From a virus (taxonomy: Duplodnaviria > Heunggongvirae > Uroviricota > Caudoviricetes): a stretch of DNA of 10,919 nt. The notes beneath the pieces are model-generated. The model saw only the letters and a list, made by a program, of their open reading frames with translations. It was not told the DNA's origin and did not search any database. Positions 1 through 10,919 of the stretch are shown here, piece after piece (the stretch's first letter is position 1; each line of letters starts with the position of its first letter). The stretch lies in IMG/VR virus record IMGVR_UViG_2558860161_000005; one strand, given 5' to 3'. A program made the position numbers and the translations under genes.

Positions 1-154
1 CCGCCATGAACACCCCTAAAAAAAGGGCATTTATATATCCAAATATTAATATCAAAACATCAACTTTTTCCATATACCTTGCTGTGAAGATGATGGGCAT
101 ACATGATGCGAACAACCAGAACGCAACAAACAAAAACTGCAATGCGTTTTTCAT
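1..154 (-). CDS. 5'-partial gene: ATG at 154-152, 51 codons to the window edge and continuing beyond; predicted small hydrophobic membrane protein, identity unknown
   Basis: Revcomp of 1-154 reads MKNALQFLFVAFWLFASCMPIIFTARYMEKVDVLILIFGYINALFLGVFMA... with no stop before the window edge. Strong SD GGAGG 4 nt upstream of the ATG (plus-strand cctcc at 159-163). Not in the ORF track because it runs off the window. Confidence 0.4.
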   Translation of the reverse strand, partial: MKNALQFLFVAFWLFASCMPIIFTARYMEKVDVLILIFGYINALFLGVFMA

Positions 155-408
155 TATTCCTCCTACAATCAATGTGCAATTACATTTAAACACACCTCAA
201 TTTGGCCGGACATATAAATATCTAAACCAGAAAAAATCACTTACATAGCGTTACAAACTCTTTAGTCTAAAGGTTCATCGTAAAACATTCCCCATACTTA
301 TCAGTCCGTTCCGCGCCAGGTAGCTCATTGCCTTATCTGGCAACCTGTAATCAGGTTTCCGCTTTTTCAGTTGGCTGGTCGTTTAACCGACATAGTTAAC
401 CCATTAAT

Positions 409-696
409 CTAGTTGCCGGATGTTGGTGGATTTTCGCGTTTTAGTTGTTCATAAAAGTGCACAGCTTTAACCAATTCTTCTGATGTAACCGGGACTGGTG
501 AGGCAGTGAATAAGGCCTGAATTTGATAGTTCGGCCTGTCGTTACAATCCTCTTTTTTCGGTACATATTTCCAGTCACCAGACCACTACTTCCCCTGAAA
601 GTCCGTAACGCCTTTTTTCACGTAGCGATATCGCCATGTCACTGGTTTTGCTTGCCCCGCCGTTTCATGCCCTTCCTGATAATTAATCTCGCTCAT
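409..696 (-). pseudogene. Unassigned 95-codon reading frame interrupted by an in-frame TAG (plus 586-588); possible nonsense-mutated prophage gene
   Basis: Revcomp from ATG at 696-694: MSEINYQEGHETAGQAKPVTWRYRYVKKGVTDFQGK-TAG-WSGDWKYVPKKEDCNDRPNYQIQALFTASPVPVTSEELVKAVHFYEQLKRENPPTSGN, stop at 411-409. The frame stays open and protein-like across the TAG. I do not recognise the family. Confidence 0.25.
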
Positions 697-758
697 TCAT
701 CGCCCCACTCATCACAATATGCTTCGACCGGAGTTTTTCCCGCTTCATAGTCATCACG

Positions 759-884
759 CTAGGATTCGACATCAGCAGCACTTCCACCGCGTAACTCACC
801 ATAGTCCATTAATAGTTCATCCCGCTCTTCAAAACTGATGTTATATTTAGCTGAACAAAAATCAGCCACTTTGTTCTTCCTCAT
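759..884 (-). CDS. Hypothetical 41-aa ORF (MRKNKVADFCSAKYNISFEERDELLMDYGELRGGSAADVES); may be a gene remnant
   Basis: ATG at 884-882, stop TAG at 761-759, weak SD. Below the ORF-track length threshold; found by manual translation. Confidence 0.15.
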   Translation of the reverse strand: MRKNKVADFCSAKYNISFEERDELLMDYGELRGGSAADVES

Positions 885-933
885 CGTCTTTTATTTCGTG
901 GTATGAGTAATTGCAGTAGTTAAAGAAAATTTC

Positions 934-1044
934 TTATGCTCCGTCATGAATTTCATCAGGTGTTGCGTCATCGTCCACTTCGAATACATCCTCAAAATCT
1001 CCACCAGCTATTCCCGTTTCAATAATAATTTTGAACTTTCGCAT
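934..1044 (-). CDS. Hypothetical 36-aa acidic ORF (MRKFKIIIETGIAGGDFEDVFEVDDDATPDEIHDGA)
   Basis: ATG at 1044-1042, stop TAA at 936-934. Upstream on the - strand: AGGAGG, then a perfect hairpin GCCGCCC-GAAA-GGGCGG (plus 1053-1070), then 7 nt to the ATG. Confidence 0.2.
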   Translation of the reverse strand: MRKFKIIIETGIAGGDFEDVFEVDDDATPDEIHDGA

Positions 1045-1535
1045 TTCACTACCGCCCTTTCGGGCGGCCTCCTGATGTTCTGAGGGTGCAGAAATCCATC
1101 CGGTTAAGGATTAAGTTTTATTTACAGAACTGAATTTAATTATTCAGATATACGTATCTGTAACCTTACGAATCTACTCACTGGATGCCTCTTTCATAAA
1201 AATAATCCAGTGGGTTTTATCGTTTTTTCCCTGTTCGTTGACAGATAACAGGCTTTCTATCTGTCAGTGCCAGAATCTGGCTTACCGGTATTTGCGTTTC
1301 ATTCCATTAAAAAATCAGAACGCCGTGCGGCCTCAACACCCGAAAAGCTTCTTTAAATCTCTGTCGCAAATCATCACGCCAGGCATCTTTATTCAGCCGT
1401 CCATATTTCTTTCCCATCCAGGCGTTATCACCAACACGCTCAAGATGCGGAGGGTCTAATACAACCATCGAAAAAGATGCGTCTGCAAATGATAATGCAC
1501 GAAAATCTGCGATAATGTCAGGGCTGATAATCAAG

Positions 1536-1544
1536 CGTCTCCCA
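1536..1544. repeat. Left copy of the 9-bp IS1 target-site duplication (cgtctccca)
   Basis: Identical 9-mer at 1536-1544 and 2313-2321, directly flanking the IS1 ends. Confidence 0.9.
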
Positions 1545-1599
1545 GGTGATGCTGCCAACTTACTGATTTAGTGTATGATGGTGTTTTTGAGGTGCTCCA

Positions 1600-1875
1600 G
1601 TGGCTTCTGTTTCTATCAGCTGTCCCTCCTGTTCAGCTACTGACGGGGTGGTGCGTAACGGCAAAAGCACCGCCGGACATCAGCGCTATCTCTGCTCTCA
1701 CTGCCGTAAAACATGGCAACTGCAGTTCACTTACACCGCTTCTCAACCCGGTACGCACCAGAAAATCATTGATATGGCCATGAATGGCGTTGGATGCCGG
1801 GCAACAGCCCGCATTATGGGCGTTGGCCTCAACACGATTTTACGTCACTTAAAAAACTCAGGCCGCAGTCGGTAA
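1600..1875 (+). CDS. insA: IS1 InsA (91 aa)
   Basis: Translation [43 protein letters not shown]... matches IS1 InsA as I recall it; zinc-finger CxxC motifs present. Confidence 0.9.
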
Positions 1876-2297
1876 CCTCGCGCATACAGCCGGGCAGTGA
1901 CGTCATCGTCTGCGCGGAAATGGACGAACAGTGGGGCTATGTCGGGGCTAAATCGCGCCAGCGCTGGCTGTTTTACGCGTATGACAGGCTCCGGAAGACG
2001 GTTGTTGCGCACGTATTCGGTGAACGCACTATGGCGACGCTGGGGCGTCTTATGAGCCTGCTGTCACCCTTTGACGTGGTGATATGGATGACGGATGGCT
2101 GGCCGCTGTATGAATCCCGCCTGAAGGGAAAGCTGCACGTAATCAGCAAGCGATATACGCAGCGAATTGAGCGGCATAACCTGAATCTGAGGCAGCACCT
2201 GGCACGGCTGGGACGGAAGTCGCTGTCGTTCTCAAAATCGGTGGAGCTGCATGACAAAGTCATCGGGCATTATCTGAACATAAAACACTATCAATAA
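1794..2297 (+). CDS. insB: IS1 InsB (167 aa; the transposase is made as an InsAB' fusion by -1 frameshift)
   Basis: ATG at 1794; translation [25 protein letters not shown]...HYQ matches IS1 InsB as I recall it; overlaps insA in the -1 frame downstream of the A6C motif. Confidence 0.9.
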
Positions 2298-2312
2298 GTT
2301 GGAGTCATTACC

Positions 2313-2436: not shown

Positions 2437-2859
2437 TCACTGCGCCACGTCCTGAAAATTACCCTGATAGAAAGCCAGTATGCGCTGCATAACTTCGCTC
2501 TTCCGGCACTCGCGACAGATTATGTTTAGGCGACTGTCGTAGCGACGTATTTCTCCGTCAGGTGATGACCAGATAAGGTCCGGATCAACCACAGCAGGTT
2601 TCTTCACCTTTGCCCTCGAGAGTTTTTTGCGGGCGTTTTGCCAGTCCTTACGCGCCTGTTCAGAGGGGAATAACCCGTAGCCGGAGTTGTATACATCGCC
2701 ACTGGCTACCAGCTCTCTGGCAAGAACGCTCATCAGATATCTAGTCGCACCTGTTTTAGCTTCCAGTTGCCGTAACGTCTCACGGCCGCTCTGGCGCACG
2801 AGTTCCACCACCTGCCATTTAATTTTTTCCCGCTCTTCTTGTGTAAAAACTTTTGCCAC
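2437..2859 (-). CDS. Hypothetical 140-aa prophage early protein, basic, possible DNA-binding; function unknown
   Basis: ORF with GTG start at 2859-2857 preceded by GGGGG SD; translation MAKVFTQEEREKIKWQVVELVRQSGRETLRQLEAKTGATRYLMSVLARELV... It lies between the replication initiator and the methyltransferase, and its stop overlaps the alternative GTG start of the methyltransferase. Confidence 0.55.
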   Translation of the reverse strand: MAKVFTQEEREKIKWQVVELVRQSGRETLRQLEAKTGATRYLMSVLARELVASGDVYNSGYGLFPSEQARKDWQNARKKLSRAKVKKPAVVDPDLIWSSPDGEIRRYDSRLNIICRECRKSEVMQRILAFYQGNFQDVAQ

Positions 2860-2899: not shown

Positions 2900-3865
2900 T
2901 TATCCTCTGAAACCAGGCGGAATTTCTGTATCCGGTTCAGAAATATGATTAACACAACGCTGTACAGGTGAACGTCCCAGGCGGATGACCAGTTCGTCCC
3001 ATTTTTCGCGGAGCTTTGACGGGCTCATGATGTTTTTTACCCAGAATGGATCTCGCTGAACCCGACCAAACATTTCGCAAATTTGTCTGTGGCTTCTGCC
3101 ATCCAGCATCCGCATTGTGCGCACGTCATTGGCCCAGGCAGTCCAGTTAGGCTCTTTTGGTCGCATGATCTCGCCATCATCACTGGCTGCCTGTTCGTAG
3201 AGACCCACGATCCGCCCCCAGATCCACTGCGCACACGCCAAATCCTCCCTGCTACCCCACTGGCGTTTTTTCGCACTAAACACAACCGCGTCGGAGTTCC
3301 GGGTTAAAGAATCCTGTTCAGTCGTCTGCGGGTCCGGTTGCGAAGCTTCCGGACGAAAAGTGTTTTTATTCTCTGTAGTAATCTCTGTTGTATTCTCTGT
3401 AAGATCATCAGGCCATTTTGACCCGATGACATTGGGTCGTTTTGAACCAATGGAGCGTTTCATTTTGACCTCTTCCATCGTGTCATTTTGACCTGATGGA
3501 GCGGCGCATTTTGAACCGATGGATTCGCTCAATTTGCCACCATCTAAAAGCTCGCTCCCATAGTTGATCGTGTAGAAATTGGTCATATCGCGCTTTGATT
3601 TATTGAGCTTTTCACAACGCAAAAGCCCCAGCGTTTTCAGACTTGCAAACGCGCGCTTTAACGTTGACTCTGACCAGAATGGGAACTGTTCCAGCCATTG
3701 TTCCGTTGTGTTATAAATCCAGCGAACACCATCACATTCCATGCCGGAGTTGGTATCTCTCAACCAGTAGTGCAGTTGTTGCAAAACAATGGCTTCGTTT
3801 AAGCCAATTTTCATTGCCAGCTGCGTGTTTATAACCAGTGGGCGTTCAGCAAAAAGAAGGCTCAT
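2900..3865 (-). CDS. Phage replication initiator (lambda O-like role), about 322 aa from ATG 3865; contains the origin iterons
   Basis: Track ORF 2900..3919 begins at a TTG; the likely start is ATG 3865-3863 (MSLLFAERPLVINTQLAMKIGLNEAIVLQQLHYWL...), typical of a phage replication-initiator N-terminus. The central region is coded by iteron DNA (SIGSK repeats) and an AT-rich repeat (TENTTEITTEN). Family assignment is from memory. Confidence 0.7.
   Translation of the reverse strand: MSLLFAERPLVINTQLAMKIGLNEAIVLQQLHYWLRDTNSGMECDGVRWIYNTTEQWLEQFPFWSESTLKRAFASLKTLGLLRCEKLNKSKRDMTNFYTINYGSELLDGGKLSESIGSKCAAPSGQNDTMEEVKMKRSIGSKRPNVIGSKWPDDLTENTTEITTENKNTFRPEASQPDPQTTEQDSLTRNSDAVVFSAKKRQWGSREDLACAQWIWGRIVGLYEQAASDDGEIMRPKEPNWTAWANDVRTMRMLDGRSHRQICEMFGRVQRDPFWVKNIMSPSKLREKWDELVIRLGRSPVQRCVNHISEPDTEIPPGFRG
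3355..3541. other. Putative lambda-style replication origin: 5-6 iterons with a 23-24 bp period (3414-3541) plus an adjacent AT-rich tract with three attctctgt-like repeats (about 3355-3400), inside the initiator gene
   Basis: Direct repeats with core ttttga(a/c)c at 3416, 3440, 3463, 3486, 3509 and a degenerate copy near 3532, each followed by (c/t)gatgg-like sequence; ccatc/gatgg dyads flank the cores. The arrangement parallels ori-lambda within gene O. Confidence 0.6.
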
Positions 3866-4367
3866 AATTCCATCCAGCTTTTTGTTGGTATTGCTGTCGA
3901 TACGCAAGCTTGAAAGCAATTGCTTTTTCTATAAGTTCGTCAGTTTCACGATCCACTACGGCAGGATCAGCAAAAAGCAGTCCGGACTCCACCACATCGC
4001 CATATTCTTTGTTTAACCCGGCGATCATGCACGTGATGCTTTTTCCGTCAGTAATTTCACGATACAACCTGAAATCACTAATCCGGATAGCCTCCATAAT
4101 CGCAGGCACTAGCGCCGTGAACTTTTCACGCTTATCCCTGGTGTCGATAGCCTTCCAGCGTTCGAATATCTTCACTCGATTAACACCAAGCGCTCGCTGA
4201 TCAACCGCGCCACCTTCATCTGTGACACGCTGAACATCGATGTTCGGGCGCTCTTTCAAAGCCCAGAATGCTTCAGTGATTAATATCGTCGCCTGCTCCT
4301 GTGTCATTCCTGGTCGACATATCCAGGCATCCAGAGCCTCACGAACCTGTTCAGGAGTGATTTTCAT
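3846..4367 (-). CDS. 173-aa early-operon protein in the cII/YdaT position; possibly a YdaT-like regulator
   Basis: ATG at 4367-4365; translation MKITPEQVREALDAWICRPGMTQEQATILITEAFWALKERPN...; overlaps the dicC stop by 17 nt and the initiator start by 20 nt, suggesting translational coupling. Family assignment is tentative. Confidence 0.6.
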   Translation of the reverse strand: MKITPEQVREALDAWICRPGMTQEQATILITEAFWALKERPNIDVQRVTDEGGAVDQRALGVNRVKIFERWKAIDTRDKREKFTALVPAIMEAIRISDFRLYREITDGKSITCMIAGLNKEYGDVVESGLLFADPAVVDRETDELIEKAIAFKLAYRQQYQQKAGWNYEPSFC

Positions 4368-4581
4368 TGTTCAACCACCCCGCCCGCTTCGTCTTACGAT
4401 ATTCATCATAAACTTTGGGATCATACTGAAGCTCCCCGCCAGATGCCTCCTGTAGACGCATCGCGCGACCTTCGGGAACTAAATCCCCTTTCCAGCTATA
4501 AAGCGAAGCCAAACGAATACCTGCTGCTTGTGCAAGTTTTGTTTTTGAACCGAAATACAAAAGAGCGTCAGTTTTAAGCAT
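4351..4581 (-). CDS. dicC: DicC, Cro-like regulator of the Qin-type immunity region (76 aa)
   Basis: ATG at 4581-4579 with SD AGGTG 7 nt upstream; translation MLKTDALLYFGSKTKLAQAAGIRLASLYSWKGDLVPEGRAMRLQEASGGELQYDPKVYDEYRKTKRAGWLNNENHS; the 76-aa length and divergent arrangement with dicA match E. coli Qin dicC as I recall it. Confidence 0.85.
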   Translation of the reverse strand: MLKTDALLYFGSKTKLAQAAGIRLASLYSWKGDLVPEGRAMRLQEASGGELQYDPKVYDEYRKTKRAGWLNNENHS

Positions 4582-4595
4582 TTAAAACACCTTTA

Positions 4596-4662
4596 TTGTT
4601 AGTCATAACTAACAAGATAGATGTTAACAAAAACATAGTCAATACGATTTAGCATTAGCTAA
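4596..4662. promoter_or_regulatory. dicC-dicA divergent promoter/operator region with two palindromic putative DicA operators
   Basis: Perfect palindrome ttgttagt-cata-actaacaa at 4596-4615 and imperfect palindrome ttagc-atta-gctaa at 4649-4662, immediately upstream of the dicA ATG (4665). Confidence 0.55.
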
Positions 4663-4664
4663 CT

Positions 4665-5072
4665 ATGGAAACAAAAAATTTAACTATCGGCGAACGCATC
4701 AGGTATCGTCGGAAAAACCTCAAACACACCCAAAGGTCTCTTGCTAAAGCCCTGAAAATCTCCCATGTGTCTGTATCACAATGGGAACGGGGTGATAGTG
4801 AACCTACAGGGAAGAACCTTTTTGCCCTCAGCAAAGTATTGCAATGCTCACCAACATGGATTCTATTTGGCGATGAAGACAAGCAACCAACACCACCTGT
4901 TGAGAAGCCAGTTGCCTTATCCCCCAAAGAACTAGAGCTCCTTGAGCTGTTTAATGCACTGCCAGAATCAGAACAGGATACCCAGCTCGCCGAAATGCGA
5001 GCTCGAGTAAAAAACTTCAATAAACTCTTTGAAGAATTACTAAAAGCCCGTCAGCGGACAAATAAAAGATAA
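4665..5072 (+). CDS. dicA: DicA, HTH (XRE-family) repressor of the dicB operon (135 aa)
   Basis: ATG at 4665, stop TAA at 5070-5072; translation METKNLTIGERIRYRRKNLKHTQRSLAKALKISHVSVSQWERGDSEP... matches E. coli DicA as I recall it (135 aa). Confidence 0.9.
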   Translation: METKNLTIGERIRYRRKNLKHTQRSLAKALKISHVSVSQWERGDSEPTGKNLFALSKVLQCSPTWILFGDEDKQPTPPVEKPVALSPKELELLELFNALPESEQDTQLAEMRARVKNFNKLFEELLKARQRTNKR

Positions 5073-5106
5073 CATCATCAATGAGTTATCTTTTACCACA
5101 TCAATT

Positions 5107-5161
5107 ATGTTAGCTATAGCATACAAAATCACTTGACCGATATGTTAGTCATGGCTAATCT
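5107..5161 (+). promoter_or_regulatory. Putative dicB-operon promoter overlapped by DicA operator-like sites
   Basis: -35 TTGACC at 5133-5138, 17-nt spacer, -10 TAATCT at 5156-5161. Operator-like atgttagctatagcatacaa at 5107-5126 (palindromic core gctatagc) and ttagtcatggctaa at 5145-5158, sharing the TGTTAG half-site with the intergenic operators. Confidence 0.5.
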
Positions 5162-5238
5162 TGTTTGCATCAACACACCGCACGGTGTTCTCAGCAAACA
5201 GTTCCGCTACCCCAGCGTTAAGGGGAAATGAGGTCCGC

Positions 5239-5394
5239 ATGGATACTATCGATCTTGGCAACAACGAATCTCTGGTGTACGGCGTGTTTCCAAACCAGGA
5301 CGGTACGTTCACCGCGATGACGTATACCAAAAGCAAAACGTTTAAAACCGAAAATGGTGCCCGTCGCTGGCTGGAAAGAAACTCAGGTGAGTGA
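5239..5394 (+). CDS. ydfA: YdfA (51 aa), dicB-operon small protein of unknown function
   Basis: ATG at 5239 with SD GAGG 7 nt upstream; translation MDTIDLGNNESLVYGVFPNQDGTFTAMTYTKSKTFKTENGARRWLERNSGE. The track ORF 5161..5394 is the same frame extended to an upstream alternative start. Confidence 0.8.
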   Translation: MDTIDLGNNESLVYGVFPNQDGTFTAMTYTKSKTFKTENGARRWLERNSGE

Positions 5395-5395
5395 T

Positions 5396-5524
5396 ATGGA
5401 TTTCGACACAATCATGGAAAAAGCTTACGAAGAATACTTCGAAGGTCTTGCCGACGGCGAAGAAGCTCTCAGCTTCAACGAATTTAAACAGGCGCTTTCC
5501 AGTTCGGCAAAATCTAACGGCTGA
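5396..5524 (+). CDS. ydfB: YdfB (42 aa), dicB-operon small acidic protein
   Basis: ATG at 5396, one base after the ydfA stop; translation MDFDTIMEKAYEEYFEGLADGEEALSFNEFKQALSSSAKSNG, stop TGA at 5522-5524. Below the track threshold; found manually. Confidence 0.7.
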   Translation: MDFDTIMEKAYEEYFEGLADGEEALSFNEFKQALSSSAKSNG

Positions 5525-5553
5525 TAAGCGAAACAGCACCGCGAGGAATCAGT

Positions 5554-5772
5554 ATGCAGAAACGAGAACCCGTCATCATCGCGCCAGACTATACCGATGA
5601 TGAACTTTATGAGTGGATGCGCCAGAAAATTAATGCAGCGCAGGATCTGAAATGGGCCAATGAAGCCAGGGCTAAGCAGGCTGAAAATCTGTCCGCTCTG
5701 GAGCAGGATATCACCAATCTGGAAAAAGCAGCGGCATTAAGCATTGCCAGAATGATTACATACCCGCGTTAA
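5554..5772 (+). CDS. ydfC: YdfC (72 aa), dicB-operon protein of unknown function
   Basis: ATG at 5554 with SD GAGG (5543-5546); translation MQKREPVIIAPDYTDDELYEWMRQKINAAQDLKWANEARAKQAENLSALEQDITNLEKAAALSIARMITYPR. Confidence 0.8.
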   Translation: MQKREPVIIAPDYTDDELYEWMRQKINAAQDLKWANEARAKQAENLSALEQDITNLEKAAALSIARMITYPR

Positions 5773-6112
5773 TAGCTAACCAACGAAGCTAAGGTTGGTA
5801 ATTAAGGAGTTCTCCACGGGTGAGGTGGAGTGCGTGCGCCGGACACGGGTGAGCATCCGGCACTGACAGTTTACTGAAAGGATATTTCCCTGAAAAGTCA
5901 GACCATAACGCGAAAGCGCACGGCGAGGTAGCTGGTTCATAGATAGCCTGTCGTTAAATTTTCGTCGACCGTGCGCTTCCGGTTGTGGCAACCCGCGAAA
6001 TGGTGCGGCGGTAAGTATGGCGGGGTTATTTCTTCCCCGTTGAGGACACCGGGTTGTCAGGTTGACCATACGCTTAAGTGACAACCCCGCTGCAACGCCC
6101 TCTGTTATCAAT

Positions 6113-6170
6113 TTTCTGGTGACGTTTGGCGGTATCAGTTTTACTCCGTGACTGCTCTGCCGCCCTTTTT
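6113..6170 (+). ncRNA. dicF: DicF small RNA (53-nt core 6113-6165 plus U-tail), antisense inhibitor of ftsZ translation processed from the dicB-operon transcript
   Basis: Sequence tttctggtgacgtttggcggtatcagttttactccgtgactgctctgccgccc followed by ttttt matches DicF as I recall it; it lies between ydfC and dicB as in Qin. Exact ends are approximate. Confidence 0.8.
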
Positions 6171-6339
6171 AAAGTGAATTTTGTGATGTGGTGAATGCGG
6201 CTGAGCGCACGCGGAACAGTTAAAACCAAAAACAGTGTTATGGGTGGATTCTCTGTATCCGGCGTTAATTGTTAACTGGTTAACGTCACCTGGAGGTACC
6301 AGGCACTGCATCACAAAATTCATTGTTGAGGACGCGATA

Positions 6340-6528
6340 ATGAAAACGTTATTACCAAACGTTAATACGTCTGAAGGTTGTTTTGAAATTGGTGTCACTA
6401 TCAGTAACCCAGTATTTACTGAAGATGCCATTAACAAGAGAAAACAAGAACGGGAGCTATTAAATAAAATATGCATTGTTTCAATGCTGGCTCGTTTACG
6501 TCTGATGCCAAAAGGATGTGCACAATGA
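6340..6528 (+). CDS. dicB: DicB (62 aa), MinC-dependent cell-division inhibitor
   Basis: ATG at 6340 with SD GAGG (6327-6330); translation MKTLLPNVNTSEGCFEIGVTISNPVFTEDAINKRKQERELLNKICIVSMLARLRLMPKGCAQ. The track ORF 6235..6528 carries a spurious N-terminal extension. Confidence 0.85.
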   Translation: MKTLLPNVNTSEGCFEIGVTISNPVFTEDAINKRKQERELLNKICIVSMLARLRLMPKGCAQ

Positions 6529-6716
6529 ATTCAGCATTTGTGCTTGTTCTGACAGTTTTTCTTGTTTCCGGAGAGCCAGTTGATATTGCAGTCAGTGTTC
6601 ACAGGACAATGCAGGAGTGTATGACTGCAGCAACCGAACAGAAAATTCCCGGTAACTGTTACCCGGTCGATAAAGTTATTCACCAGGATAATATCGAAAT
6701 CCCGGCAGGTCTTTAA
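6525..6716 (+). CDS. ydfD: YdfD (63 aa), small membrane protein reported to cause lysis when overexpressed
   Basis: ATG at 6525 overlaps the dicB stop (ATGA); SD AGGA 9 nt upstream; translation MNSAFVLVLTVFLVSGEPVDIAVSVHRTMQECMTAATEQKIPGNCYPVDKVIHQDNIEIPAGL with a hydrophobic N-terminus. Confidence 0.8.
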   Translation: MNSAFVLVLTVFLVSGEPVDIAVSVHRTMQECMTAATEQKIPGNCYPVDKVIHQDNIEIPAGL

Positions 6717-6808
6717 AACAGTTCCGTAATAAATATCCGGTTTCATTCTTATATGCCAGCAATGGCAGGGATTTGTTCATCCTTAAATCTGTCATGAGGT
6801 TAAAACAA

Positions 6809-9280
6809 ATGAGTAAAGTCTTTATTTGCGCCGCTATTCCTGACGAACTGGCAACAAGGGAAGAAGGCGCTGTGGCTGTAGCCACAGCCATTGAAGCTGG
6901 CGACGAACGCCGTGCTCGAGCAAAATTTCACTGGCAATTCCTGGAACATTATCCGGCTGCTCAGGACTGCGCTTATAAATTTATTGTCTGCGAGGATAAA
7001 CCTGGCATACCCCGCCCTGCCCTCGATTCATGGGATGCTGAATATATGCAGGAAAACCGCTGGGATGAGGAGTCTGCTTCTTTTGTCCCGGTTGAGACTG
7101 AATCCGATCCGATGAACGTCACTTTTGACAAGCTGGCCCCTGAAGTACAGAACGCTGTCATGGTTAAGTTCGACACATGTGAAAACATCACCGTTGATAT
7201 GGTTATTAGCGCACAGGAATTGTTGCAGGAAGACATGGCAACATTCGACGGACATATCGTTGAAGCGTTGATGAAAATGCCAGAAGTTAACGCCATGTAT
7301 CCGGAGCTTAAGTTGCACGCCATTGGGTGGGTTAAGCATAAATGTATTCCTGGTGCTAAATGGCCCGAAATTCAGGCAGAGATGCGCATCTGGAAAAAAC
7401 GTCGCGAAGGTGAACGCAAGGAAACCGGAAAATACACGTCTGTTGTTGATCTCGCCCGCGCCAGAGCCAATCAACAGTACACTGAAAATTCAACAGGAAA
7501 AATCAGCCCGGTCATTGCTGCCATTCATCGCGAATACAAGCAGACATGGAAAACACTGGATGACGAACTGGCCTACGCTCTCTGGCCTGGTGATGTGGAT
7601 GCCGGAAACATTGACGGCAGCATCCATCGCCGGGCAAAAAATGAAGTTATCGACAACGACCGCGAAGACTGGAAGCGTATCTCGGCATCAATGCGCAAAC
7701 AGCCTGATGCCCTTCGCTACGACCGCCAAACTATTTTTGGCCTTGTCCGTGAGCGTCCGATCGACATTCACAAAGATCCCGTAGCACTGAACAAATATAT
7801 CTGCGAATACCTGACGACAAAGGGCGTGTTTGAGAATGAAGAAACAGACCTGGGCACTGTTGATGTTCTCCAGTCATCAGAAACACAAACTGATGCAGTG
7901 GAAACTGAGGTATCTGATATCCCAAAAAATGAAACCGCGCCGGAAGCTGAACCATCTGTAGAGCGTGAGGGGCCGTTCTATTTCCTCTTCGCAGATAAGG
8001 ACGGAGAAAAATACGGTCGCGCAAACAAACTTTCTGGTCTGGATAAGGCACTGGCTGCTGGCGCCACTGAAATCACAAAAGAAGAATATTTTGCCCGAAA
8101 AAATGGCACATACACGGGCTTACCGCAAAATGTAGATACCGCTGAAGATTCAGAACAACCAGAGCCGATAAAAGTTACCGCTGACGAAGTAAACAAAATT
8201 ATGCAGGCAGCCAATATCATCCAGCCTGACGCCGATAAGTTGCTTGCTGCATCACGTGGTGAATTTGTTGAAGGGATTAGTGACCCGAATGATCCGAAAT
8301 GGGTTAAGGGGATCCAGACCCGCGATTCTGTGAACCAGAACCAGCATGAATCGGAACGGAACTACCAAAAAGCGGAACAAAACAGCCCAAATGCGTTACA
8401 AAACGAGCCAGAAACGAAACAGCCTGAATCAGTGGCGCAACAGGAAGTGGAAAAAGTCTGCACCGCCTGCGGTCAGACCGGCGGCGGCAACTGCCCTGAT
8501 TGTGGCGCGGTAATGGGCGACGCAACATACCAGGAAACATTCGATGAAGAGTATCAGGTTGAAGTTCAGGAAGATGATCCGGAGGAAATGGAAGGCGCTG
8601 AACATCCACACAAGGAGAACACTGGCGGCAATCAGCATCACGATAGCGATAATGAAACTGGCGAGACGGCAGATCACTCAATTAAGGTGAACGGTCATCA
8701 AGAAATCACATCCACCAGCAGGACGTGTGACCATCTAATGATCGACCTTGAAACCATGGGAAAAAATCCTGATGCCCCGATCATCTCAATAGGTGCAATA
8801 TTTTTCGATCCGCAAACCGGAGATATGGGACCGGAATTTAGTAAGACTATCGATCTGGAAACTGCTGGCGGAGTCATTGATCGGGACACCATTAAATGGT
8901 GGCTTAAGCAATCACGCGAAGCGCAATCTGCCATTATGACCGATGAAATCCCGTTAGATGATGCACTGTTACAATTGCGGGAATTTATCGACGAAAACTC
9001 CGGTGAATTTTTTGTTCAGGTCTGGGGAAATGGAGCCAACTTCGACAACACGATTTTGCGCCGTTCATACGAACGGCAGGGGATCCCCTGCCCGTGGCGT
9101 TACTACAACGATCGCGATGTACGCACAATCGTTGAGCTGGGGAAAGCCATAGACTTCGATGCCAGAACGGCTATTCCATTCGAAGGTGAGCGCCATAATG
9201 CACTTGATGACGCCCGTTACCAGGCAAAATACGTTTCAGTTATCTGGCAAAAACTGATCCCGAGTCAGGCTGATTCTTAA
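6809..9280 (+). CDS. Full-length YdfE-like protein (about 823 aa): N-terminal domain of unknown function, acidic linker with a Cys4 zinc ribbon, C-terminal DnaQ-like DEDDh 3'-5' exonuclease domain
   Basis: Likely start ATG 6809 (SD GAGG 6797-6800); the track ORF begins at TTG 6773, and ATG 6794 is an alternative. Exonuclease motifs: D-L-E from 8744, WGNGANFD, HNALDDARY. Zinc ribbon CTACGQTGGGNCPDCG at about 8459-8506. The N-terminus MSKVFICAAIPDELATREEG... is what I recall for the K-12 ydfE pseudogene product, which is truncated there. Confidence 0.8.
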   Translation: MSKVFICAAIPDELATREEGAVAVATAIEAGDERRARAKFHWQFLEHYPAAQDCAYKFIVCEDKPGIPRPALDSWDAEYMQENRWDEESASFVPVETESDPMNVTFDKLAPEVQNAVMVKFDTCENITVDMVISAQELLQEDMATFDGHIVEALMKMPEVNAMYPELKLHAIGWVKHKCIPGAKWPEIQAEMRIWKKRREGERKETGKYTSVVDLARARANQQYTENSTGKISPVIAAIHREYKQTWKTLDDELAYALWPGDVDAGNIDGSIHRRAKNEVIDNDREDWKRISASMRKQPDALRYDRQTIFGLVRERPIDIHKDPVALNKYICEYLTTKGVFENEETDLGTVDVLQSSETQTDAVETEVSDIPKNETAPEAEPSVEREGPFYFLFADKDGEKYGRANKLSGLDKALAAGATEITKEEYFARKNGTYTGLPQNVDTAEDSEQPEPIKVTADEVNKIMQAANIIQPDADKLLAASRGEFVEGISDPNDPKWVKGIQTRDSVNQNQHESERNYQKAEQNSPNALQNEPETKQPESVAQQEVEKVCTACGQTGGGNCPDCGAVMGDATYQETFDEEYQVEVQEDDPEEMEGAEHPHKENTGGNQHHDSDNETGETADHSIKVNGHQEITSTSRTCDHLMIDLETMGKNPDAPIISIGAIFFDPQTGDMGPEFSKTIDLETAGGVIDRDTIKWWLKQSREAQSAIMTDEIPLDDALLQLREFIDENSGEFFVQVWGNGANFDNTILRRSYERQGIPCPWRYYNDRDVRTIVELGKAIDFDARTAIPFEGERHNALDDARYQAKYVSVIWQKLIPSQADS

Positions 9281-9352
9281 TGTTCAACTGTCGCCGGTTG
9301 TGACTGGTATTCTGCAACCGGCGCTCGTCTGATGTAAGAGATAAAGAAATCG

Positions 9353-9604
9353 ATGAGCGAAGTAATCATGATTGTCTCTCCCGGCAAATGGGTATCCGAA
9401 GAGCAGTTAATTGCGCTGAAAGGAATAAAAAAAGGTACGTTAAAAAAGGCCCGGGAAAAATCGTTTATGGAAGGAAGGGAATATAAGCATGTCGCTCATG
9501 ACGGTATGCCATGGGATAACAGTCCATGCTTTTACAACCTGGAAGAAATTGATCGCTGGATTGAGCGCCAGGCATCAGCAAGACCAAGACGTCATCTTAC
9601 TTGA
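9353..9604 (+). CDS. Excisionase-like small DNA-binding protein (83 aa), immediately upstream of int
   Basis: ORF MSEVIMIVSPGKWVSEEQLIALKGIKKGTLKKAREKSFMEGREYKHVAHDGMPWDNSPCFYNLEEIDRWIERQASARPRRHLT; basic; position and size typical of a lambdoid xis; an alternative start is ATG 9368. Confidence 0.65.
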   Translation: MSEVIMIVSPGKWVSEEQLIALKGIKKGTLKKAREKSFMEGREYKHVAHDGMPWDNSPCFYNLEEIDRWIERQASARPRRHLT

Positions 9605-9623
9605 CTAAAAGCCACACTAACTA

Positions 9624-10919
9624 ATGAGAGAAGTTGAAATGAAATATCCGACAGGCGTGGAAAACCATGGAGGGAAATTACGTATCTGGTTTGTTTATAA
9701 AGGCGTAAGAGTCAGGGAAAACCTGGGGGTTCCTGACACAGCAAAAAACAGGCGCGTTGCAGGTGAGCTACGCGCCTCTGTTTGTTACGCAATAAAAACT
9801 GGTGTTTTCGACTATGCAAAACAGTTTCCCTCCTCACGCAATCTGGAAAAATTTGGTGAGACTCGACAAGATTTAACCATAAAAGAACTGGCTGAAAAAT
9901 TTCTGGCACTGAAAGAAACTGAAGTCGCAAAAACATCACTCAACACATACCGTGCCGTCATCAAAAATATCCTGAGCATAATCGGTGAAAAAAATCTTGC
10001 CTCATCGATTAATAAAGAAAAATTACTGGAGGTTCGTAAAGAGCTACTGACTGGATACCAGATCCCCAAAAGTAACTATATTGTTACACAACCAGGGAGA
10101 TCGGCTGTAACTGTAAATAATTACATGACAAATCTTAACGCCGTGTTCCAGTTTGGTGTTGATAACGGTTACCTGGCAGATAACCCGTTTAAGGGGATCT
10201 CGCCATTAAAGGAATCAAGAACCATTCCGGATCCTCTTTCGCGGGAGGAATTCATCCGTCTTATCGATGCGTGCAGAAATCAGCAAGCCAAAAATTTATG
10301 GTGTGTTTCTGTTTATACTGGCGTTCGCCCTGGTGAGCTGTGTGCACTTGGATGGGAGGACATAGATCTGAAAAATGGAACAATGATGATCAGGAGAAAT
10401 TTAGCAAAAGACCGTTTCACGGTACCAAAAACACAGGCGGGAACCAATCGGGTCATTCATCTTATTAAGCCAGCAATCGACGCTCTCCGGAGTCAGATGA
10501 CATTAACGAGACTGAGCAAAGAGCATATCATTGATGTTCACCTCAGAGAGTATGGCAGAACAGAAAAACATAAATGCACCTTTGTTTTTCAACCTGAAGT
10601 GTCAGCGAGAGTAAAAAATTATGGTGACCATTTTACCGTTGACTCAATAAGGCAGATGTGGGACGCAGCGATAAAACGTGCCGGACTCCGCCATCGAAAA
10701 TCATATCAGTCGAGACATACTTATGCCTGCTGGTCGCTGACAGCTGGTGCTAATCCGGCATTTATAGCAAACCAGATGGGCCATGCAGATGCGCAAATGG
10801 TATTTCAGGTATACGGAAAATGGATGTCTGAAAACAATAATGCACAGGTAGCTTTGTTAAATACACAGTTAAGCGAGTTTGCCCCAACCATGCCCCATAA
10901 CGAAGCAATGAAAAATTAA
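9624..10919 (+). CDS. Phage tyrosine integrase (lambda-Int family); probable counterpart of Qin intQ, here apparently intact
   Basis: 431-aa ORF from ATG 9624 (the second ATG at 9639 has the better SD). N-terminal arm-type DNA-binding-like region; C-terminal catalytic region with SRHTYACW (His-x-x-Arg) and a C-terminal Tyr in GHADAQMVFQVYGKW. The stop TAA is the last three bases of the window. Confidence 0.85.
   Translation: MREVEMKYPTGVENHGGKLRIWFVYKGVRVRENLGVPDTAKNRRVAGELRASVCYAIKTGVFDYAKQFPSSRNLEKFGETRQDLTIKELAEKFLALKETEVAKTSLNTYRAVIKNILSIIGEKNLASSINKEKLLEVRKELLTGYQIPKSNYIVTQPGRSAVTVNNYMTNLNAVFQFGVDNGYLADNPFKGISPLKESRTIPDPLSREEFIRLIDACRNQQAKNLWCVSVYTGVRPGELCALGWEDIDLKNGTMMIRRNLAKDRFTVPKTQAGTNRVIHLIKPAIDALRSQMTLTRLSKEHIIDVHLREYGRTEKHKCTFVFQPEVSARVKNYGDHFTVDSIRQMWDAAIKRAGLRHRKSYQSRHTYACWSLTAGANPAFIANQMGHADAQMVFQVYGKWMSENNNAQVALLNTQLSEFAPTMPHNEAMKN

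Follow-up and report, generated by a model that had tools for sequence, protein, structure and literature searches.

The 10,919-nucleotide stretch of DNA analysed here (the window) is very probably the early region, comprising immunity, left arm and replication genes, of an mEp460-like Qin-type lambdoid prophage that targets the 5' end of ydfJ and is free of the two deletions found in K-12. A preliminary description of this DNA had noted at positions 4351-10919 a structurally more complete Qin-type left arm than that of K-12, and had proposed that the element may retain excision or replication competence; the observation is confirmed and the interpretation supported. The interval extends from the dicC stop codon (minus strand) to the int stop codon, and every gene listed for it below is an uninterrupted ORF.

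Direct alignment of Qin of K-12 MG1655 (Kim; a cryptic prophage of 20.5 kb, b1544-b1579) to the window gave matches only at 4088-7575 (3,488 bp, gap-free, 99.2% identical) and at 9760-10919 (1,160 bp, 98.8% identical). Between the two matches lies the following segment:

7576-9759, plus strand: segment missing from K-12 Qin, 2,184 bp, holding exo from codon 256 to 823, xis in full and int codons 1-40

In the K-12 annotation, a 704-bp IS2 remnant (IS2E, partial, insD7 pseudogene) occupies the place of this segment. K-12 ydfE keeps only codons 1-255, its match ending at window position 7575, and K-12 intQ is without its first 40 codons, including part of the arm-binding domain, with codons 41-426 being 98.8% identical to the window. 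To the left of 4088, K-12 retains nothing, neither the remainder of ydaT nor the iteron-bearing O-like initiator nor DUF977. This second, separate deletion amounts to 4,829 bp and runs from about codon 94 of ydaT through the O-like initiator and origin, DUF977 and the nin-like genes. Relative to strain 2022CK-00450, K-12 is colinear except for these missing 4,829-bp and 2,184-bp segments, and the colinearity extends for another 10.4 kb at 99.8%. The MG1655 alignment bears out what the preliminary description stated of K-12 (ydfE truncated and then IS2, intQ disrupted, replication genes absent after dicC), and from dicC to intQ the window does not share the K-12 truncations.

The order dicC-dicA-ydfABC-dicF-dicB-ydfD-ydfE-int is collinear in the window and K-12 Qin, which places the window among the Qin-type lambdoid prophages, with the same lineage and locus type as K-12 Qin. 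Identity is 99.2% over dicC-dicA-ydfABC-dicF-dicB-ydfD and ydfE codons 1-255, and DicA, DicB and YdfD are identical; the window carries an IS1 copy that K-12 Qin lacks. Judged by sequence, the window is of the same lineage as K-12 Qin (99-99.8% identical where K-12 DNA remains), without the two K-12 deletions. Conversely, K-12 Qin is confirmed as a twice-deleted derivative of an mEp460-like phage, the exact losses being 2,184 bp and 4,829 bp. Qin of K-12 does not excise, for which inactive intQ is held responsible (PMC3105296).

The immunity region and the first part of the dicB operon contain the following features:

4351..4581, minus strand: dicC, Cro-like regulator of 76 aa (Pfam P22_Cro, 1.8e-11), first gene of the rightward PR-like operon
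4582..4664, unstranded: dicA-dicC intergenic control region, 83 bp, with palindromic operator-like repeats at 4586-4625
4665..5072, plus strand: dicA, C2/CI-like repressor of 135 aa (HTH_3, 1.3e-16; Phage_CI_repr, 7.5e-6)
5239-5394, 5396-5524 and 5554-5772, plus strand: ydfA, ydfB and ydfC, first genes of the dicB PL-like operon
6114..6165, plus strand: DicF small RNA (Rfam RF00039, 76.7 bits against a gathering score of 48, E 6.2e-16, full length 1-52)
6340..6528, plus strand: dicB, cell-division inhibitor of 62 aa (Pfam DicB, 1.9e-40), identical to K-12 DicB
6525..6716, plus strand: ydfD, 63 aa (Pfam DUF1482, 3.9e-26), identical to K-12 YdfD

A divergent HTH repressor and a Cro-like gene flank a short operator-like region, as in P22-type (C2/Cro) immunity. 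DicA matches K-12 DicA and the cI of phage PhiR42_1 at 135 of 135 residues, and DicC differs from K-12 DicC at a single residue (W69R). The inverted repeat between the two genes (18-nt arms, 83% complementary) forms putative DicA operators, as we infer from the K-12 literature (PMC10448788). The coordinates of ydfABC were carried over from DNA annotated by PGAP, with 3 mismatches to the window in 10,142 bp; these genes align to K-12 free of gaps, and ydfC matches phrog_1744 (1.6e-39). Scans of 4351-10919 for promoters (5 promoter-like sites, 9.8 expected) and terminators (13 terminator-like sites against 7.3±2.7) were uninformative.

Beyond ydfD, the same strand carries three further genes:

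6809..9280, plus strand: exo, full-length YdfE-type exonuclease of 823 aa, with a unique N-terminus, a RecE-like middle and a C-terminal DEDDh 3'-5' exonuclease domain
9353..9604, plus strand: xis, excisionase of 83 aa (Pfam DUF1233 putative excisionase, 1.6e-31, profile positions 1-69 of 70)
9639..10919, plus strand: int, tyrosine integrase of 426 aa (Arm-DNA-bind_2, 5.5e-24; Phage_integrase, 3.8e-18)

All three are open and uninterrupted in the window, in keeping with the earlier statement that they are full-length. That they offer intact versions of genes fragmentary in K-12 is also correct, but such versions were already available in sequenced phages and thousands of genomes.

Xis matches phrog_539 (excisionase) at positions 1-79 of 80 and is identical at 83 of 83 residues to the Xis of mEp460_ev081 and PhiR42_1, making it a full-length member of its family. 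For int, an alternative ATG upstream at 9624 would give 431 aa. The arm-type DNA-binding domain of a heterobivalent integrase is present at the N-terminus (PF12167 Arm-DNA-bind_2, aa 4-67), and the protein is recognisable as a tyrosine recombinase, aligning to Tn1549 Int (6emy) with E 3.9e-9. Its catalytic set consists of R230, K264, Y356-x-x-R359, H382 and Y392, conserved with the integrases of mEp460, VT1-Sakai and Stx phages; Y356, which replaces the first His of HxxR, is shared by these same integrases and is a family-wide feature. With R230, K264, R359, H382 and Y392 in place, Int shows no inactivating substitution at its catalytic residues. It is identical to mEp460_ev081 Int at 424 of 426 residues (2 differ), and the final 262 nt of the gene, whose 3' end doubles as part of the int-side att arm, are identical at 261 positions to mEp460. 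Substitutions in int are mostly synonymous (pN/pS of 0.10-0.29, from small counts). More distantly, the integrases of Stx-converting phages (VT1-Sakai Int at yehV; the "IntR" type) are 61-62% identical over the full length and have the same catalytic set, but they use other attachment sites and stand beside other modules.

The exonuclease is covered by phrog_2082 over aa 1-822 of 823, and its C-terminus (aa 642-813) is the Rv2179c-like domain PF16473 (2.5e-67). We rejected the label "exonuclease VIII" for this protein: the NF007259 (ExoVIII) model scores 283.8 bits, far under its curated NCBIfam cutoff of 1269, and over aa 246-625 only, and the domain content is DEDDh PF16473, not the RecE nuclease. 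The likeness to RecE (exonuclease VIII of the Rac prophage) lies in this middle part, where aa 246-625 match RecE model positions 271-602, and in short DNA stretches 86-92% identical to recE of Rac; RecE has its own nuclease domain, whereas exo ends in the DEDDh Rv2179c-like 3'-5' domain. Domain and family searches found no RecT-like partner. The pN/pS of exo is 0.31-0.35 (small counts).

On the other side of the immunity region, the minus strand holds the replication module:

3846..4367, minus strand: ydaT-type (CII-like) gene, 173 aa (Pfam YdaT_toxin, 5.5e-5; phrog_163 CII-like activator, 1.2e-40)
2900..3865, minus strand: O-like replication initiator, 321 aa from the annotated start (phrog_391 "replication initiation O-like", 5.6e-91, full length)
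3359..3544, unstranded: lambda-type origin inside the initiator gene, with iterons at 3406-3544 beside an AT-rich stretch at 3359-3405
2437..2859, minus strand: DUF977/Ren-like gene, 140 aa (Pfam DUF977, 5.1e-29; phrog_142 "Ren-like exclusion protein"), downstream of the initiator

K-12 ydfX is a 5' fragment of the ydaT-type gene, the K-12 match starting at 4088. The initiator has no Pfam or NCBIfam match and is identified by PHROGs only; it differs by 1 aa from that of PhiR42_1 and by 7 aa from that of mEp460, with a pN/pS of 0.09 (small counts). As the preliminary description held, the ORF is full-length and contains an origin. Repeat search found 5-6 iterons of 23-24 bp (TRF period 23) with the core TCATTTTGAMC, and this array with its AT-rich neighbour is the arrangement of a lambda-type replication module. 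Over a 221-bp alignment of the origin, PhiR42_1 is identical and mEp460 differs at 2 columns, one of which is within the iteron array. The DUF977 protein is identical to that of PhiR42_1. No P- or DnaC-type helicase loader was detected beside the initiator with Pfam or PHROGs, the next gene being the DUF977/"Ren-like" one, and this loader-less arrangement is common to mEp460. Compared with lambda, the window has the same outline, namely an arm-binding tyrosine integrase and a small excisionase ending the PL operon beside attP, and an initiator gene with an internal iteron origin and, after it, an AT-rich region. The families are nevertheless different, with an Arm-DNA-bind_2 Int, a DUF1233 Xis, attB in ydfJ with an 11-bp core, no P-type loader and P22-like (C2/Cro) immunity.

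The window itself ends at the int stop codon; the attachment site was read from the two nearest genomes, A38 and 2022CK-00450 (2-3 mismatches). The att core is 11 bp, GAAATCCATAA, and lies 38-48 bp past the int stop codon in both genomes and again at ydfJ. An 18-bp core, suggested by BLAST overlap, was rejected upon direct inspection. The core is present at attL and attR of K-12, 2022CK-00450 and A38, and the mEp460 attP maps to both ends of K-12 Qin; the att arms of 2022CK-00450 are identical to this attP at 310 of 311 and 311 of 311 positions. The in-silico empty site is intact in 2,009 genomes (up to 100% identical). The 11-bp core is exactly where an empty site departs from an occupied one, and each of the two states is common within the species. 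The preliminary description had suggested looking for core repeats and a tRNA or other target beyond the window end; judged from these relatives, the integration target is most probably the 5' end of ydfJ and not a tRNA, in agreement with the literature on the Qin site (PMC6379469). A tRNA target was dropped, since a scan of the window with ARAGORN yielded no tRNA and the relatives have their attachment site within ydfJ.

From these parts, a course of events can be proposed. DicA, the C2-like repressor identical to that of K-12, would keep two divergent promoters shut. Its inactivation, brought about in K-12 by the antirepressor Rem (whose gene lies outside the window), would allow transcription of the PL-like dicB operon through ydfABC, DicF, dicB, ydfD, exo, xis and int. 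Int, as an arm-binding tyrosine recombinase, together with Xis would then recombine attL with attR at the 11-bp GAAATCCATAA, yielding a circle and restoring ydfJ. Meanwhile, the PR-like operon (dicC, ydaT, O-like, DUF977) would provide the initiator, which would bind the 5-6 iterons in its own gene beside the AT-rich stretch, as at lambda ori. Excision and replication competence is likely, as far as can be read from sequence, and the modules are presumed to be expressed and active in the source strain. This competence is plausible because Xis (83/83) and Int (424/426) are practically those of the functional mEp460_ev081 and the origin is 1 base off in the iterons. The functional status of mEp460_ev081, a temperate phage with dicB, dicF, dicAC and rem, rests on PMC10448788, according to which Qin-type induction goes through Rem. 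Literature searches on PhiR42_1/ECOR13 induction and on mEp460_ev081 isolation found nothing directly relevant.

The intact arm is already known and ordinary: the same proteins are in RefSeq, in sequenced viable phages and in about 30-40% of complete E. coli genomes. Of 5,426 complete E. coli genomes, 2,351 carry both xis and int, 1,599 carry the entire arm, and 2,724 have the 2,184-bp segment (7576-9759) at 80% coverage or more. The practical value of the finding is therefore small. Still, in this 30-40% of genomes, natural isolates have a dicB operon that runs on into a full exonuclease, xis and int, which is relevant to studies of DicB, DicF and Rem regulation. Among phages, mEp460 (mEp460_ev081, LR597641), PhiR42_1, Tritos and HannyBb share with the window the exo family, the O-like/ori/DUF977 module, and the attP core and arms; their Int is 99.1-99.5% identical in aa and their Xis is identical. 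Of these, PhiR42_1, deposited as a phage genome from ECOR13, matches all of 4351-10919 at 99.2% identity, shares the defective methyltransferase described below and carries a transposase in its nin region. In mEp460, immunity specificity differs (DicA 62/135 and DicC 24/76 residues relative to the window) and the exonuclease is more divergent (92 aa differences). All four phages carry full morphogenesis genes, none of which is visible in the window.

In contrast to the left arm, the nin-like region adjoining the replication genes is decaying, with three pseudogenes and an insertion sequence:

1545..2312, plus strand: IS1, 768 bp, with a 9-bp target duplication CGTCTCCCA at 1536-1544 and 2313-2321

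Its length and target duplication are those of IS1, and it is 100% identical to the IS1A copies of the 2022CK-00450 genome. The insertion disrupts an already defective SAM-methyltransferase gene (minus strand, fragments at about 1174-1544 and 2313-2440), which has in-frame stop codons independent of IS1. The preliminary description considered only the methyltransferase to be visibly broken. This falls short, as two further pseudogenes lie in 1-1544, at about 275-696 and 862-1044 (PGAP, on DNA 100% identical to the window); all of this decay is outside 4351-10919. Located on the path of the PR-like transcript, with the replication genes on one side and the Q antiterminator on the other, the IS1 may be polar on late-gene activation. 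Relative to the four phages it is private to the window; its junction is covered in none of 5,426 complete E. coli genomes, and GTDB species representatives contain no exact match. Whole-window matches at 100% coverage were obtained to 2022CK-00450 and two other records. For 2022CK-00450, inspected directly, this is an artefact of joined pieces: the IS1 piece maps to another IS1 copy, in rspB, and the methyltransferase is without IS1. The two other records have the same span and piece count, and the same artefact is presumed.

The rest of the prophage differs between the two nearest genomes. A38 (2 mismatches in 10,142 positions) has a complete-looking 47.6-kb prophage between two att cores, encoding terminase, portal, protease and capsid together with tail fibres, pin and a full set of tail proteins, whereas 2022CK-00450 (3 mismatches in 10,142) has a 24.5-kb cryptic prophage that has lost all head and tail morphogenesis genes and, by position, cos. 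It is accordingly possible, though we hold it somewhat improbable, that the source genome holds all head, tail and lysis genes and thus a fully viable, inducible mEp460-like temperate prophage, a live phage instead of a more complete cryptic prophage. The A38 prophage points in this direction, as does PhiR42_1 with its near-identity over the arm, its defective methyltransferase and its nin-region transposase. However, 2022CK-00450 is about equally close to the window, and the private IS1 may be polar on the way from the replication genes to Q. In addition, 2022CK-00450 and the two other 100%-identity records have 38 matching places each (mostly IS1), against 2 in A38; given its extra IS1, the source may resemble these three IS1-rich records more than A38.

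The ORFs could also be intact in an element that is grounded, with xis and int unexpressed or att unusable, such that the window is recently immobilised DNA whose decay is still to come. We consider this unlikely. It would fit the distal position of xis and int in a long operon under tight DicA repression in K-12 (PMC10448788), the pseudogenes and accumulating IS elements elsewhere in the element, and the mutated intQ' in most Qin matches examined by PMC6379469. Nevertheless, a functional phage has essentially the same recombination proteins and att arms, the int substitutions are mostly synonymous, and neither core is damaged in the nearest genomes. The clean empty site in 2,009 genomes is, moreover, consistent with ongoing integration and excision or with repeated acquisition.

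Residence of the arm outside the Qin (ydfJ) locus in the source, in another lambdoid prophage or a free phage genome, is very improbable: ydfC-dicB-ydfD-exo does occur at 92-97% identity in prophages elsewhere (e.g., ompW prophages of Stx-producing E. coli, with different integrases) and matching places number up to 10 per genome, with a median of 2, but the ydfJ site is dictated by this particular int, every inspected genome with a match of at least 99.9% has the arm adjoining rspB/ynfP at ydfJ, and IS1 insertion is more typical of chromosomal residence.

For the early region of a ydfJ-targeting prophage that we favour, one further role can be imagined, which we regard as improbable. With int, xis, both att sites, a DicA/Rem switch and its own origin, an excision-competent Qin-type element could act as a reversible ydfJ switch ("active lysogeny"). 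Were this the case, excision would rejoin the first 28 codons and promoter region, beside rspB, to the body of ydfJ, and the element might replicate as a circle for some time before reintegrating.

Alignment of MG1655 1,628,000-1,658,000, with its annotation, against the window gave only two matches: window 4088-7575 at 99.2% (28 mismatches, 0 gaps) and window 9760-10919 at 98.8%. In this alignment, window 7576-9759 has no counterpart in K-12, which carries a 704-bp IS2E remnant (insD7 pseudogene) there instead, and nothing was found in K-12 for the window left of 4088. Since K-12 is without window 7576-9759, its ydfE retains codons 1-255 out of 823, xis is lost, and intQ is missing its first 40 codons, the greater part of the arm-binding domain. 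When K-12 is compared with strain 2022CK-00450, which together with strain A38 is nearest to the window, a clean 4,829-bp deletion appears in K-12; it starts at ydaT codon ~94 and ends right next to ydfW, and K-12 ydfX is the 5' stump of the ydaT-type gene. The alignment agrees with the K-12 state given in the preliminary description (ydfE truncated, an IS2 copy, intQ disrupted, replication genes absent). The IS2-linked truncation was confined, among the genomes inspected, to K-12 and one K-12 laboratory derivative. Excision of K-12 Qin has been reported as undetectable and blamed on the inactive intQ (PMC3105296).

The window was mapped using a six-frame ORF list, Pfam, NCBIfam, PHROG and Rfam scans, and the PGAP annotation of near-identical complete-genome DNA, all of which were concordant.

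Gene map of the window (coordinates, strand, feature)
1-1544, decayed nin-like genes
1545-2312, plus, IS1 with 9-bp target duplication CGTCTCCCA, within a SAM-methyltransferase gene
2437-2859, minus, DUF977 / "Ren-like"
2900-3865, minus, O-like initiator
3846-4367, minus, YdaT / CII-like
4351-4581, minus, dicC
4665-5072, plus, dicA
5239-5772, plus, ydfA, ydfB, ydfC
6114-6165, plus, DicF (Rfam, 76.7 bits)
6340-6528, plus, dicB
6525-6716, plus, ydfD
6809-9280, plus, 823-aa exonuclease
9353-9604, plus, xis
9639-10919, plus, int

As had been proposed, int, xis, the YdfE-like exonuclease gene, and the initiator with its origin are full-length, with open reading frames that do not share the K-12 truncations. 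DicC residue 69 (window 4375-4377), in the C-terminal tail, is Trp here and in A38 and 2022CK-00450, and Arg in K-12, PhiR42_1, and mEp460.

Int contains Arm-DNA-bind_2 and Phage_integrase domains (Pfam) and aligns with Tn1549 Int (6emy; E 3.9e-9). Checking its catalytic residues for inactivating substitutions, we found R230, K264, R359, H382, and the nucleophile Y392 in place and invariant when Int was aligned with its counterparts from mEp460_ev081, VT1-Sakai, and an Stx2 phage. Most tyrosine recombinases have His at the first position of the HxxR motif. In Int, Tyr replaces this His (Y356-x-x-R359, window 10704-10715), as it does in the mEp460, VT1-Sakai, and Stx2 phage Ints. Because Tyr is present in all compared Ints, Tyr356 is a family trait rather than damage and is, judging from these sequences, compatible with activity. 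Only T75A and H301Y separate Int from that of mEp460_ev081, Xis is identical (83/83) to those of mEp460_ev081 and PhiR42_1, and int pN/pS is 0.10-0.29, with mostly synonymous substitutions (small counts). mEp460_ev081 is reportedly a functional temperate phage with dicB, dicF, dicAC, and rem (PMC10448788).

The mEp460 attP region matches both ends of K-12 Qin, with a common att core of 11 bp, GAAATCCATAA, identified by inspection. Over 10,142 positions, 2022CK-00450 has 3 differences from the window and A38 has 2. In both strains the core lies 38-48 bp past the int stop codon (the exact end of the window), with a second copy at ydfJ; in 2022CK-00450, the two att arms match mEp460 attP at 310/311 and 311/311 positions. 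A virtual empty site, joined from the K-12 flanks, is uninterrupted in 2,009 of 5,426 complete E. coli genomes (up to 100% identity) and is annotated as intact ydfJ adjoining rspB. Therefore, the target is the 5' end of ydfJ, in agreement with a published account (PMC6379469). Of the att repeats and "tRNA or other target" suggested for inspection, the repeats were found in 2022CK-00450, A38, and K-12 and the target is ydfJ; a tRNA is ruled out by this core position and by ARAGORN, which found no tRNA in the window. Since both cores are kept in K-12, providing Int and Xis in trans should excise its Qin, a testable prediction for the Int and Xis described here. The K-12 attL core (4278-4288 of L002, a K-12 sequence piece) contains the annotated start ATG (minus strand, 4284-4286) of the truncated ydfJ.

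By homology, DicA would shut the divergent promoters, and derepression would occur through Rem or DicA loss (PMC10448788). Transcription of the dicB operon would then continue into exo, xis, and int, Int and Xis would recombine attL with attR at the core, restoring ydfJ, and the dicC operon would yield the initiator, allowing the internal origin to fire. The intact xis and int could plausibly restore the excision step missing in K-12 Qin. Altogether, the observation of a more complete arm is confirmed and its interpretation supported; the finding itself is unremarkable and was known before.

In natural isolates, the intact arm is frequent. At a threshold of at least 80% query coverage, the segment missing from K-12 (7576-9759) occurs in 2,724 of the 5,426 genomes, xis plus int in 2,351, the whole of 4351-10919 in 1,599, and the whole window in 265. 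Four deposited phage genomes (mEp460_ev081, Tritos, HannyBb, and PhiR42_1) carry the arm at 95-99% identity, PhiR42_1 covering 100% of 4351-10919 at 99.2%. A survey found Qin-site prophages of 11-97 kb in 48% of 638 genomes (PMC6379469).

The methyltransferase, left as fragments on either side of IS1 (1174-1544 and 2313-2440), is not the sole visibly broken gene, contrary to what had been stated: where DNA matches window 1-1544 at 100%, its PGAP annotation also has minus-strand pseudogenes at ~275-696 (hypothetical protein; frameshift and internal stop) and ~862-1044 (DUF7167 protein; internal stop). All three nin-region pseudogenes are common to A38 and 2022CK-00450, and the methyltransferase was already dead before IS1, with in-frame nonsense codons common to PhiR42_1, A38, and 2022CK-00450. 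The IS1 junction was found in 0 of the 5,426 genomes and 0 GTDB species representatives; the insertion is private to the window's source. Since it lies on the PR-like transcript path, with the replication genes on one side and the Q antiterminator on the other, it may be polar. In A38 (NZ_CP028738.1, 2364925-2412541) the prophage spans 47.6 kb and looks complete, carrying terminase, portal, protease, and capsid genes, a full tail set, tail fibres, and pin, whereas 2022CK-00450 has a 24.5-kb cryptic version in which an IS1 deleted the pin-to-ynfO stretch, including, by position, nohA and cos. This comparison indicates that late-region decay is recent and lineage-specific.

Inside the initiator gene, 5-6 iterons recur every 23-24 bp (3406-3544; core TCATTTTGAMC), and an AT-rich stretch (3359-3405) comes after the array. 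This region is identical to that of PhiR42_1 and differs from mEp460 by one base inside the array. PHROG 391 ("replication initiation O-like") aligns with the entire protein, whereas Pfam and NCBIfam gave no match. The Pfam and PHROG scans found no P- or DnaC-type helicase loader beside it, the DUF977 / "Ren-like" gene following instead; the reportedly functional mEp460 has the same pair, also without a loader. This arrangement is of mild residual interest.

Of similar interest is the exonuclease, a chimera of three parts. Residues 1-257 belong to the unknown-function family phrog_5943. Similarity to RecE, in its non-catalytic part, extends over residues 246-625 (NF007259 positions 271-602; 283.8 bits, cutoff 1269), and residues 642-813 form a 3'-5' exonuclease domain of the Rv2179c-like DEDDh type, in which DLE, NFD, and H-x4-D motifs are visible. 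The arm has no RecT/Bet-like partner, and, on the basis of this domain composition, the usual annotation as "exodeoxyribonuclease VIII" looks wrong.
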